A program made the position numbers. This document shows positions 42,101 through 45,100 of a DNA stretch of 64,000 nt, one piece after another. Where the stretch lies: the NCBI RefSeq assembly GCF_057098645.1, contig NZ_CM169472.1. The stretch is one strand, 5' to 3'. Position 1 is the first letter of the stretch; every line of letters begins with the position of its first letter.

Positions 42101-45100
42101 CAGCCTGACGTAGATTATCCAGTGACGATAATCGAGGCTGAGGGCTTTCCTAAACTCATACCCACGTCTGCGGTAGTTCTGAATCAGCCATTCGGCCTGT
42201 TCTTCAGTGCATGGGGCGTGCCGGAACCAGTCAGATTTGAATGCATGAGAACGCCGCCCGTGCCTGCTGGCAAAGACGGCTGAATTATCAGAATTGTGTA
42301 GTCTGGAATTTTGCGCCATCGGCTTTCTCCGGTGGCACAGTGTTACTCAACAGGGGTTCAGCCCTGCGCTGAATTGTAGATGAATTCACTAATCTTCAAA
42401 AGCAGAAAAACCAGCCTTAATCCCAGCTTCTTTCAGAGACGGCAACGATGTGACAAATTCATTTGCACGCAAAATAAAACCATCCGTCACAAGCCCATCC
42501 ACAAAATGAATTAACGCAGCTCCACTCTTCCTTTGTTGAGACTGTAAACATTTAATACGGCAGTGGCTGACAATAGCGCCCTTCTCAACGCGCACAGTAT
42601 AGAGGCCATCTTCACTAAAAATTTCACGTAATTCTTCGATTCTCATCAACAGAATCCTTCCAGATAAATAGCACTCCCCTGTTCGGGGTCCATCCCTCTT
42701 CTCCCTGCGCGCTACTTAAGTATTTTTGATTCTATTCCGGCGCCGTCCGGAACTTCAAACGCGTTGAAAATAAAAACAAAAACCCGCCGAAGCGGGTTAA
42801 GTGCGGGTGCGTTGAGGATGCCTGACACATCAGAGGTGGCGAGGGATTTCTCCCCCGCCTGGTCTCTTACTCCTCAGGTTCGTAAGCTGTGAAGACAGCG
42901 ACCTCCGTCTGGCCGGTTCGGAGTCGTACCTCGCAGAGGTCTTTCCTCGTTACCAGTGCCGTCACTATGACGGTTAAACAGATGACGATCAGGGCGATTA
43001 ACATCGCCTTTTGCTGCTTCATAGCCTGCTTCTCCTTGACCTTTCGGTCCGTAAGAGTCAATCTATATGTGACGAGCATATAGGGGCCTCACTTCGATTT
43101 ATAGTCGGGTGGGGCTTTTATCTATCTGCCGTTGGTGTTCATGCCCGAGGCAGATAGCCTCAAGCACCCGCAGCAATCCTACTTAACTCTGCCGTTACAG
43201 CAAACCGTTTTCGCCCGATATGGGAATTCCCATATCGGAATGAATTCAGTTCACCTGGCGAGGCTTAGCGTACAATTTTTTCCGTTTTGTGAGCTGCCCC
43301 TACATGCCGCTGGCGCGGCATCCGGAAAAAGAATCCACGTCCTGAAGGACGAGGATGTCAAGTGCCTTTCCTGGTCCAGCCATATTTTTTGAATGCAGGC
43401 GCCGCTTCATCGGTTTGTAGCCATTCTGCAAATCGACGGGTTTCATCATTTGCATCCTGACGTACTGTAATGTTCATATCACGCCATATCACGTAGTCTG
43501 GCGCTATTTCCACGACATCACCAATTTCTGGATTACTGGCTGCCCAGTCAGCCCAGGTTATCCAGACATCTGCTCCAGGCTGATTCTCAAGAGCCTTACG
43601 TGCAGTTCCGCTATTGGGCGCATATAAAATAATATTTTTTCGGATTGCGGCGACAGTTTCTATATTCCCTTTACGTCCGGCAATATCTTCCCAGACGCCA
43701 GTGCCTGATGTATTACTGGTACCACCACCATCATTAACAATTACGCCAATCCCAGGTCTGGTCAGGTCGTCAATACTCCGGATATTTTTAGGATTACCTT
43801 TCTTTACCAGTAAAATACTTTTTCGCAGATAAAGAGGCTGAATATCTTTTTCACTGAAGCTGTCTTTATGGTCCCGAATGATAGCCAGAGCAGATTGTTC
43901 TGATGCGCCAAACAAGATATCTGCATTTTTTTTGGCATCTTCATTCCATTTGTTCTGTGGGCCGTAATGAACGTTCACTATAATACCTGTTTTTTCGGCA
44001 TAAAGTTTGGCTGCATCAAGCAAGGCTGTATGCGGGCCACCAGGACCATACAGATTGATATCAGCATAAGCAGCAGAAGACAGGAATATTAAAAAACCTG
44101 CCATTATGTTCCTCATAAAAAACTCCTTTTATTGGTTATCATGAAATAAAGTTATAAACACTACAAATAATATATATTACATCCAGATAAACTTATCCGA
44201 CTTTACCTCGTGCATAGCTTGTTATTTAAAGTCAACAAAATAAGGAAAATTATACGCATATTGAAGAGTATAAACCTTACATGTTGATTACATTTTTGTA
44301 ATCAACATCCTGTTTGGAATAGCCAGCCTTTAATGGATAACTATTTCTGACAATGCAATGAGTATAATCAAGTCCATCTTCCACTGAGAATTAGAGGCGG
44401 CATGCTTTTTCCGGCTCTTGCCGGATATCCGTAATTGTCCATAATCTGCAGATTTATACCTTCTGCATGACCTGTCAGCGAAAATTTGTCCGGTGTTTCT
44501 ACGGGAATGACATCAAAGTTACACGCACTCGCGTTACCGTGTAGACCTACTTTCCTGCACTTGCAAGATCACAGTGGTGTAACCGTAACAGGAATTTATT
44601 CTCTGGACCGGCAGTAAATCCCTGAGTGGCGTGGTTCCCATATCAATTTCCCGCCAGGCAGCCTCCATTGCCAGCGTACAGGCTGGAGCCATGACCTGCC
44701 CTTTAAATCTGGCCCGACCATCCCACCGGACGTGTTCTTCTCCCCTGAACTTAGGTACAGTCATCTCCAGTGGCACAAAAGTGTCAGCGCCATAATTTTT
44801 GACCGTTATCGCGCTACGGATATTTTGTTGACTGGTGAAAATCACCCCGCAGAATCAGGCTTATTCCCTTAACCTGGGCTTTCATCCTGACCGCCGCCTC
44901 ACTACGACCAATCAGACTGCCGATGCATTTTACCTTCATTGTTAGTATCATGATTTCAGGCCTGCACCATCCGCTCATTGCCCGGACTTCCGACAAATCC
45001 CGGCAACCATATCCCGGTGCTTGTTCAGCTCCCGCAGCGCGGCGCAGACTCGCTCCCACTTCTGGACATGATTCTTCGCCCTACGCAGTTCGCGATTTGC

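Follow-up and report, generated by a model that had tools for sequence, protein, structure and literature searches.

An orphan binding-protein gene in an ompW-integrated lambdoid prophage is paa/adfO, cargo of the AcfC/PEB3 family

What is a gene for a binding-protein-like product doing between the replication and antitermination genes of a lambdoid prophage, beside a hok toxin gene and apart from any transporter? The question is raised by an ORF in a 64,000-nucleotide stretch of contig NZ_CM169472.1, which we analysed as a whole and refer to as the window. An earlier note, made from the sequence alone, had recorded a 252-aa ORF whose product showed a Sec signal peptide and a binding-protein-like pattern of two lobes, and had suggested that orphan binding proteins of this type, AcfC being the example, can act in host interaction rather than transport. 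From our analysis it is nearly certain that the gene is paa/adfO, that its product belongs to the AcfC/PEB3 family and that it is carried as cargo. The observation was correct but ordinary: the gene and its pairing with ckf have already been named and studied. We describe here the identity and setting of the gene, its mobile module, the fold of the product, and how Paa may act.

Identity of the gene and its setting in the prophage

Our ORF listing contains a 252-aa frame, from ATG to stop, that fits 43358–44116 exactly with the stop codon inside these coordinates; it lies on the minus strand, a point on which the earlier note was silent. The surrounding segment 43100–44400 (1,301 bp) shows 100% nucleotide identity to a RefSeq locus annotated as "paa: AcfC family adhesin Paa" (WP_001449026.1), the identical locus being present in O157:H7, O26, O103, O111 and O145 genomes, and GenBank records of PPompW prophages carry a 100% identical gene named "Paa/adherence factor AdfO." This identity makes the ORF paa, the porcine attaching-effacing associated gene, which is known as adfO (z2053, OI-57) in EHEC O157:H7 and is already described. 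A 1.3-kb paa query was at least 80% covered in 576 of 5,426 complete E. coli genomes. The gene is conserved at 100% across serotypes, and the alleles on porcine ETEC plasmids have 93% protein and 86% DNA identity; the distribution, for which a prophage-restricted or a chromosomal pattern had been considered, takes in ompW prophages and porcine ETEC plasmids. In a PHROGs search with Paa, the sole match was phrog_11834, "unknown function." The gene and its immediate neighbours are as follows.

43358–44116, minus strand: paa/adfO coding sequence, for an AcfC/PEB3-family protein of binding-protein fold (ORF listing, nucleotide identity, Pfam, PDB and fold match)
42867–43022, minus strand: hokD toxin gene, 51 aa (translation; RefSeq annotation of the identical locus)
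43020–43169, minus strand: hok leader and sok antitoxin RNA, in the stretch that separates paa from hokD (Rfam sok, RF01794, 95.6 bits, E 1.9e-21)
44277–44809, minus strand: fimbrial-subunit gene decayed to a pseudogene, next upstream of the paa module (RefSeq note on the identical sequence; three-frame translation)

The lambdoid prophage that contains paa ends in an ompW remnant on one side and an intact ompW on the other, and is of the ompW-integrated type (PPompW; OI-57 type) of Shiga-toxin-producing and attaching-effacing E. coli. Along the minus strand its genes run P (45743–46204), DUF1627, a small ORF, the fimbrial pseudogene, paa, hokD, a rem-like gene, a ydfU-like gene (DUF968), rusA and Q (39932–40621). 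The gene therefore sits between replication gene P and antiterminator gene Q, the nin-equivalent location given in the earlier note, and the hok neighbour named there is hokD, directly downstream at a distance of 335 bp. The OI-57 literature states that adfO (z2053, OI-57) is always accompanied by ckf (z2054) (PMC8565820), and we infer that this ckf is the hok-type gene seen here as hokD. Compared with Paa/AdfO as described in EHEC O157:H7 (z2053, OI-57), we find the same gene, the same hokD neighbour and the same ompW-integrated prophage type, with no gene-level difference. The prophage copy in the window is defective: relative to the O145:H28 version, about 11 kb of morphogenesis (head and tail) genes are missing.

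Two features at the 5′ end of the gene bear on where Paa begins and where it goes.

44123–44128, minus strand: Shine-Dalgarno sequence AAGGAG (read from the upstream sequence; 6 nt before the first ATG)
44063–44116, minus strand: predicted Sec signal peptide, MRNIMAGFLIFLSSAAYA, codons 1–18, cleavage before D19 (sequence features; PEB3 alignment)

Because AAGGAG stands 6 nt before the first ATG, translation more likely begins there, giving 252 aa, than at the M5 start (248 aa) of the PPompW GenBank records. Read by eye, the N-terminus has a basic n-region (MRNIM), a hydrophobic core (AGFLIFLSSA) and an A-x-A signal peptidase I site (AYA, followed by DINLYG), and D19 aligns with residue 1–2 of the mature PEB3 crystal chains; the signal peptide proposed earlier is well borne out. 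Residues 1–13 have low pLDDT in the structural model described below. We looked for a lipobox cysteine in the N-terminus and found none. Paa is accordingly predicted to be a Sec-exported, periplasmic protein that is not a lipoprotein.

A mobile module under purifying selection

The following features define the unit in which paa appears to travel.

44117–44320, minus strand: AT-rich 5′ leader and promoter region travelling with paa (GC content; the part up to 44320 is common to the porcine ETEC plasmid copy)
43338–43351, minus strand: terminator-like hairpin (CGTCCTTCAGGACG, then a T-rich tail), 7 nt past the paa stop codon (consensus scan)
43298–44320, minus strand: mobile module of paa with its leader and hairpin, 1,023 bp (blastn of 42000–46000 against NZ_CP122714.1)

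The composition of this unit departs from that of its surroundings. The GC content is 43.9% in paa and 32.5% in the leader (44117–44430), against 49.7% in the window, and it stays at 30–37% when taken in 300-nt steps across 43900–44499; the gene does have the AT-rich upstream region of its own that the earlier note ascribed to it. A search for sigma-70 consensus sequences near paa gave no significant site: there were 5 promoter-like sites against 4.1 expected from shuffled sequence, a count not above the shuffled expectation. One weak promoter-like site lies at 44390–44361. Terminator-like hits in the region are likewise no more frequent than in shuffled sequence, and the hairpin is assigned by its position only; it falls inside the module common to the plasmid copy.

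That module is shared at 86% nucleotide identity with a porcine ETEC IncF plasmid (NZ_CP122714.1). On its upstream side the shared part reaches about 200 bp beyond paa and takes in just the last 44 bp, at the 3′ end, of the fimbrial pseudogene. On the phage side, other lambdoid phages with hok/sok, among them 933W and VT2-Sakai, lack paa and match at the sok flank alone, in agreement with the view that this is not a standard lambdoid gene. The slot just upstream of hokD is variable: in Qin, a prophage of E. coli K-12, relBE occupies it. With its place among conserved phage genes, its deviant composition and its presence in some related phages but not in others, paa has the marks by which a moron is recognised, and it behaves as a self-contained cargo unit of this kind in the prophage.

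Could this cargo be a functionless remnant, taken up by the prophage from a disrupted transporter or fimbrial operon? The fimbrial pseudogene directly upstream of paa lends the idea some substance: RefSeq notes the identical sequence as "fimbrial protein, frameshifted; internal stop," its pieces are visible in three-frame translation, and it is probably what is left of the locus that supplied the paa cargo. The defective state of the prophage, with its head and tail genes gone, points the same way. The gene itself does not look decayed, though. Paa is full length relative to the PEB3 and AcfC crystal chains and unchanged across serotypes, and its dN/dS is 0.07 (0.03–0.09 against three diverged alleles), values which indicate that paa is under strong purifying selection at the sequence level. 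The plasmid-shared module, with only 44 bp of the pseudogene, further separates the gene from the fimbrial remains, and phenotypes of paa/adfO mutants are published, as reviewed in PMC8565820. We consider a remnant extremely improbable, and the conservation and selection data effectively refute it. The narrower case of a fragment from a disrupted transporter operon, which the earlier note had named as the finding that would count against its reading, was rejected on the same full length and dN/dS, together with the orphan state of the gene in every context examined.

Fold, ligand and the transporter question

The binding-protein-like pattern noted from the sequence corresponds to a recognised family. 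Pfam SBP_bac_11 matches Paa over residues 20–247 (E 6.4e-34), and the best solved structures are PEB3 (E 1.2e-81, residues 11–248, 52.7% identity) and AcfC (4JB7; E 3.5e-81, residues 16–248, 51.5% identity); the AcfC-like guess was well aimed, and the RefSeq product name reads the same way. In an alignment of Paa, PEB3 and AcfC, 95 positions are invariant in all three. An AlphaFold model from the single sequence was discarded (pLDDT 41.2), while a model from a 12-sequence alignment, made of plasmid homologues and the PEB3 and AcfC chains, reached a pLDDT of 89.1. This model fits 4JB7 (AcfC) with a TMq/TMt of 0.90/0.98 and an rmsd of 1.0 Å, and 3FJ7 (PEB3) with 0.88/0.96 and 1.2 Å. Next-best are the sulfate- and molybdate-binding proteins SubI, Sbp and ModA (TM about 0.7), with 12–19% identity to Sbp and ModA. 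From the model, the fold of Paa would be a type II periplasmic-binding-protein clamshell with two lobes, like those of AcfC and PEB3.

The likeness extends into the cleft. All three proteins conserve the S134-N-T-S-G-T139 loop and W142-E-D144; the loop reads SNTSGTGVWED in Paa and identically in PEB3, and SNTSGTAVWED, one residue apart, in AcfC. In more distant homologues it is missing through a 5-residue deletion. Residues 131–140 are the lowest-confidence internal part of the Paa model, with a pLDDT of 65. As in the PEB3 complexes, this loop may contact the ligand. By analogy with these relatives, the ligand of Paa is most probably a small anion, bearing phosphate, sulfate or carboxylate, that sits in the cleft between the lobes.

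PEB3, a major antigenic peptide of Campylobacter jejuni (2HXW, 3FJ7, 3FJG and 3FIR; TMt 0.95–0.96), is reported to bind or transport 3-phosphoglycerate and related phosphates (PMC3417527, PMC12469816). It differs from Paa in being chromosomal rather than carried on a prophage, and in its N-glycosylation: the glycosylated sequon, DFNVS, is DSFSE in Paa, and the site is not conserved.

With such a fold, Paa might be an ordinary transport binding protein that feeds a chromosomal transporter, for example CysUWA or ModBC, with sulfate, thiosulfate, molybdate or a phospho-metabolite, which would give the virulence phenotypes a nutritional cause. PEB3 has been described as a 3-phosphoglycerate transporter component (PMC12469816), the nearest structures outside the family are SubI, Sbp and ModA, and weak NCBIfam and PDB matches to sulfate-binding proteins lie over the anion-loop region. 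Paa shares with Sbp, CysP, SubI and ModA the general type II fold and the anion-in-cleft type. These resemblances are, however, distant, as the low identity to Sbp and ModA indicates. The NCBIfam scores are local matches only and fall far under the cut-offs (22.6 bits against 288 for Sbp, 19 against 308 for CysP and 18.3 against 62.5 for ModA), and membership of Paa in these families was rejected on this basis; a family-specific NCBIfam model for Paa was also sought, and none matched. Paa is also shorter, at 252 aa against about 310–330 aa for Sbp, and unlike Sbp, CysP and ModA it comes without cognate permease or ATPase genes. E. coli, moreover, already owns dedicated Sbp, CysP and ModA proteins.

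The genomic contexts tell against a transporter partner in the same way. Permease or ATPase genes were sought throughout the annotation of the matching prophage and none was found, as the earlier note had it for the neighbourhood of the gene. In none of 10 contexts, comprising the prophage and nine plasmid-borne homologues from three bacterial classes, did we see adjacent ABC permease or ATPase genes, the PLSDB gene tables behind this count being incomplete. Beside distant homologues, in six plasmid contexts, stand LysR regulators and transporters of the TDT family in place of ABC systems. Service to a chromosomal transporter, ABC or other, strikes us as quite improbable.

How Paa may act in adherence

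The names given to Paa imply something else, namely a true surface-exposed or secreted adhesin that, once exported by Sec, would bind directly to sulfated host glycans or another epithelial receptor in early attachment, before attaching-effacing lesions form. Besides the names in RefSeq ("AcfC family adhesin Paa") and GenBank ("adherence factor AdfO"), this has experimental backing. According to a review (PMC8565820), paa and adfO mutants show weaker adherence, the adfO mutant being less adherent to HeLa cells, and Paa is implicated in pig ileum colonisation; in addition, AcfC binds the sulfated glycans heparin and chondroitin sulfate, and also mucin, in ELISA (PMC5976639). Yet the fold of Paa is that of a closed-cleft binding protein for small ligands, and Paa has no anchor, lipobox, autotransporter or fimbrial features. 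Its relatives argue in the same direction: AcfC is periplasmic and affects mucin chemotaxis but not adhesion to Caco-2 or HT-29MTX cells (PMC5976639), and PEB3 is now treated as a phospho-metabolite protein, a review doubting the adhesin label of the Peb proteins (PMC3417527, PMC12469816). The review of adfO (PMC8565820) adds that the mutant also makes and secretes less of several other proteins, a sign of an indirect effect. We regard a classical adhesin as doubtful, if well short of far-fetched.

AcfC of Vibrio cholerae (VC0841) has much in common with Paa. Each protein has a signal peptide and the same fold, is an orphan binding protein and is encoded on a mobile virulence element. They differ in setting: acfC belongs to a ToxT-regulated operon of the Vibrio pathogenicity island, where it follows the chemoreceptor-like acfB (PMC5976639), whereas paa stands alone in its prophage, with no chemoreceptor gene near it. 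They also differ in phenotype, AcfC acting in chemotaxis and localisation without an effect on cell adhesion and Paa/AdfO having a reported effect on adhesion.

Taking these relatives as a guide, we lean modestly toward an indirect effect of Paa on adherence over classical surface contact between adhesin and receptor. In such a scheme, Paa would be made with its Sec signal peptide and enter the periplasm, where it would serve as an anion-binding receptor, possibly released in part. Adherence could then be altered through the sensing or scavenging of a host-derived anionic compound, or through an effect on the cell envelope.

A more specific version, which we put forward tentatively as possible, is that Paa is not an adhesin and that the prophage supplies it as a periplasmic receptor for a host-derived anion, signalling or delivering to a partner other than an ABC transporter. 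The chemotaxis phenotypes of AcfC and the LysR regulators and TDT-family transporters beside the distant homologues hint at this. Candidate partners would be chemoreceptors, sensor kinases and secondary transporters, and a sulfated mucin fragment or a phospho-metabolite would be a candidate ligand.

In practical terms, paa/adfO is an OI-57 marker in the molecular risk assessment of Shiga-toxin-producing E. coli, and recognising it helps to assign the window to a strain of STEC/EPEC type. For Paa, AcfC and PEB3 alike, the field already asks how adherence is promoted by a protein that has the fold of a small-ligand binding protein and no transporter partner. If Paa does act as a receptor with a non-ABC partner, the adherence and secretion defects of paa/adfO mutants would be downstream effects, and the prophage would give EHEC and EPEC an extra sense for their niche in the gut.

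Identity, export signal and fold of the protein

The ORF at 43358-44116 (minus strand, 252 codons plus stop in the ORF listing) is almost certainly paa, also called adfO. At 100% identity, the segment 43100-44400 recurs in many complete E. coli genomes (O157:H7, O26, O103, O111, O145), RefSeq names the identical gene "paa: AcfC family adhesin Paa" (WP_001449026.1), and at least 80% of this 1.3-kb query is carried by 576 of 5,426 complete E. coli genomes. In a phage collection, Paa occurs in 11 records only, all "PPompW" prophages (prophages at ompW) or Stx2a phages nested therein, and its annotation there is "Paa/adherence factor AdfO". 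A review on O157:H7 O-islands equates adfO with z2053 of OI-57, likens its product to Paa of porcine EPEC, and describes an adfO mutant with weaker HeLa adherence and less production and secretion of several proteins (PMC8565820). The OI-57 literature has adfO always accompanied by ckf (z2054), which we take to be the hok-type gene of this window; on that reading, the pairing of a binding protein with hok has been described before. The gene has a name and a literature as a virulence-associated locus, and it occupies its usual place here.

The earlier note had read, from the sequence alone, a 252-aa ORF with a Sec signal peptide and its own AT-rich upstream region, and both readings hold. Paa begins MRNIM-AGFLIFLSSA-AYA and continues DINLYGPGGP; this N-terminus combines a basic n-region with a hydrophobic core and ends in an A-x-A signal peptidase I site; as it has no cysteine, it cannot hold a lipobox. 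In the PDB, mature PEB3 chains start with residues that align with D19, and Paa would be exported to the periplasm. While RefSeq gives 252 aa, PPompW GenBank records give 248 aa, starting at M5; the AAGGAG on the coding strand, six bases ahead of the first ATG, better supports the 252-aa start. The GC content is 43.9% in paa and 32.5% in the 314 bp upstream, against 49.7% in the whole window.

The suggested two-lobe binding-protein pattern and the AcfC-like guess also proved right. In phmmer searches against PDB sequences, Paa matched C. jejuni PEB3 (E 1.2e-81, 52.7% identity over residues 11-248) and V. cholerae AcfC (E 3.5e-81, 51.5% over residues 16-248), with 95 positions invariant across the three; its Pfam match is SBP_bac_11 (E 6.4e-34). 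Since AlphaFold on the single sequence gave a pLDDT of 41, we used a model from an alignment of 12 sequences, comprising plasmid-borne homologues and the PEB3 and AcfC chains (pLDDT 89.1, pTM 0.83). The proposed structure search against ModA, sulfate-binding and AcfC families, run with Foldseek, placed this model closest to AcfC (4JB7; TMq 0.90, TMt 0.98, rmsd 1.0 Å) and PEB3 (3FJ7; 0.88/0.96, rmsd 1.2 Å), with SubI, Sbp and ModA as a second tier (TM about 0.7, 12-19% identity). NCBIfam matches to Sbp, CysP and ModA were local and far under cut-offs (22.6 bits vs 288 for Sbp; 18.3 vs 62.5 for ModA). Homology, fold and these scores therefore place Paa in the AcfC/PEB3/Paa clade and not among sulfate or molybdate transporter components.

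Paa has a loop S134-N-T-S-G-T139 followed by G-V-W142-E-D; PEB3 has the identical sequence, and AcfC departs from it at a single residue. The five-residue SNTSG stretch of this loop is missing from more distant homologues (35-41% identity), five of the six aligned; the Sulfitobacter homologue keeps it as GNTSG. The PDB deposits hold D-aspartate (4JB7, in the protein) and L-phospholactate (3FJ7). A small anionic ligand would probably be bound in the Paa cleft.

The prophage and the position of paa

The genes around paa run in the following order.

Gene order from P to Q
45743-46204, minus: replication gene P, first in the order
after P, minus: DUF1627 gene
after the DUF1627 gene, minus: small ORF
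44277-44809, minus: fimbrial-subunit pseudogene with frameshifts and internal stops, directly upstream of paa
43358-44116, minus: paa
43020-43169: sok match (Rfam)
42867-43022, minus: hokD
after hokD, minus: rem-like gene
after the rem-like gene, minus: ydfU-like (DUF968) gene
between the ydfU-like gene and Q, minus: rusA
39932-40621, minus: Q, last in the order

This minus-strand order puts paa in the nin-equivalent region next to hok, as the earlier note had it, at a distance of 335 bp; the note's claim of no adjacent permease or ATPase genes extends to the whole prophage, where we found none. Three phage-borne tRNA genes (39496-39736, minus; Arg-tct, Lys-ttt, Met-cat) lie just downstream of Q; PPompW_132418 also has this trio, whereas in the O145 and O157 relatives the annotation shows one Arg and one Ile gene in its place.

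A 3' remnant of ompW (20586-20711) marks one end of the prophage and intact ompW (about 54915-55553) the other; the trp operon and yciC-tonB are its neighbors on opposite sides. This is the lambdoid prophage at ompW known from PMC8112680. It lacks about 11 kb present in the O145 RM10425 version (8470-19430 of that locus), the gap lying near 35468: the loss takes in most of the tape-measure gene and continues through the genes for tail tube, head-tail connector, portal and capsid. At the junction, the tape-measure 3' end abuts the terminase large-subunit gene, which is short of its last 10 nt. These losses make the prophage defective. Stx2a phages integrate into PPompW prophages at a 21-bp attB, GTCATGCAGTTAAAGTGGCGG, as a "prophage-in-prophage" (PMC8112680); an exact, unoccupied copy lies at 21013-21033 (minus), near the ompW remnant, and the prophage therefore could accept an Stx2a phage. 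Type III secretion effector genes, with IS remnants between them, occupy the opposite end from paa (21852-25430).

Effector genes
21852-22502, minus: DUF1076 (NleG-like) gene
24009-24599, minus: espM1
24783-25430, plus: nleG

An extra 1.3 kb (25936-27268) is not in strain C325. A stretch 95% identical to the IS3-family element IS1203 (7958-9267) belongs to the chromosomal flank near the trp region and not to the prophage, whereas in the O157:H7 PV15-279 prophage IS1203 interrupts the replication region.

Cargo exchange and selection

E. coli K-12 Qin is homologous to the Q-ydfU-rem-hokD backbone as far as 43036 (ydfU-rem-hokD 86% identical over 41292-43036, the match stopping 14 nt before hokD starts), but has relE-relB where the window has the sok region and paa. 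Stx phages such as 933W and VT2-Sakai have no paa; their match is confined to the sok flank (43110-43211). These comparisons mark the position upstream of hokD as a variable slot and a hot spot of cargo exchange, and paa is indeed no standard lambdoid gene. A low-GC unit at 43298-44320 consists of paa with about 200 bp of leader ahead of it and about 60 bp of trailer behind, the trailer including a hairpin 7 nt past the stop codon. A porcine ETEC strain carries this unit on an IncF plasmid at 86% nucleotide identity, between IS elements and repA. Only the last 44 bp (3' end) of the fimbrial pseudogene fall within this shared module, and the pseudogene may have been left over from the locus that paa was captured from.

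That paa itself is a dead remnant, like its decayed neighbor in a defective prophage, is highly improbable: the gene is under strong purifying selection, with dN/dS values of 0.07, 0.03 and 0.09 in comparisons with the ETEC plasmid allele (93% aa), with an allele on a Salmonella plasmid (81%) and with a further one at 74%, respectively.

Periplasmic receptor or adhesin

No ABC permease or ATPase gene adjoins paa or its homologues in any of ten contexts (the prophage; ETEC, Salmonella and E. coli plasmids; Sulfitobacter, Agrobacterium, Acinetobacter, Paraburkholderia, Riemerella and Spirosoma plasmids), which points to orphan status as a family trait, although incomplete PLSDB gene tables make the neighbor pattern indicative only. 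With the same indicative reading, a LysR regulator adjoins four of six distant homologues (Sulfitobacter, Agrobacterium, Acinetobacter and Paraburkholderia, 35-48% identity) and a TDT-family transporter two of six. Paa could serve in ordinary transport with a partner encoded elsewhere, in line with PEB3 being seen as a 3-phosphoglycerate binding or transport protein (PMC3417527, PMC12469816); given the orphan contexts, we regard this as improbable.

Our analysis shows which gene this is, what fold and export signal its product has, that it is an orphan cargo gene and that it is under selection. Direct adhesin activity of Paa would fit its RefSeq name and the adherence defect of the adfO mutant, but the adhesin label of Peb proteins has been questioned (PMC3417527, PMC12469816). 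AcfC is periplasmic in fractionation, binds heparin, chondroitin sulfate and mucin more than hyaluronate, and influences mucin chemotaxis and intestinal distribution, while leaving adhesion to Caco-2 and HT-29MTX cells unaffected (PMC5976639). We therefore consider a direct adhesin unlikely, if less so than a transport protein, and lean modestly toward Paa as a periplasmic receptor, whose effect on adherence would more probably be indirect than a matter of adhesin-receptor contact. The only research value of the locus lies in this adhesin-versus-receptor question for Paa, which the field already recognizes.
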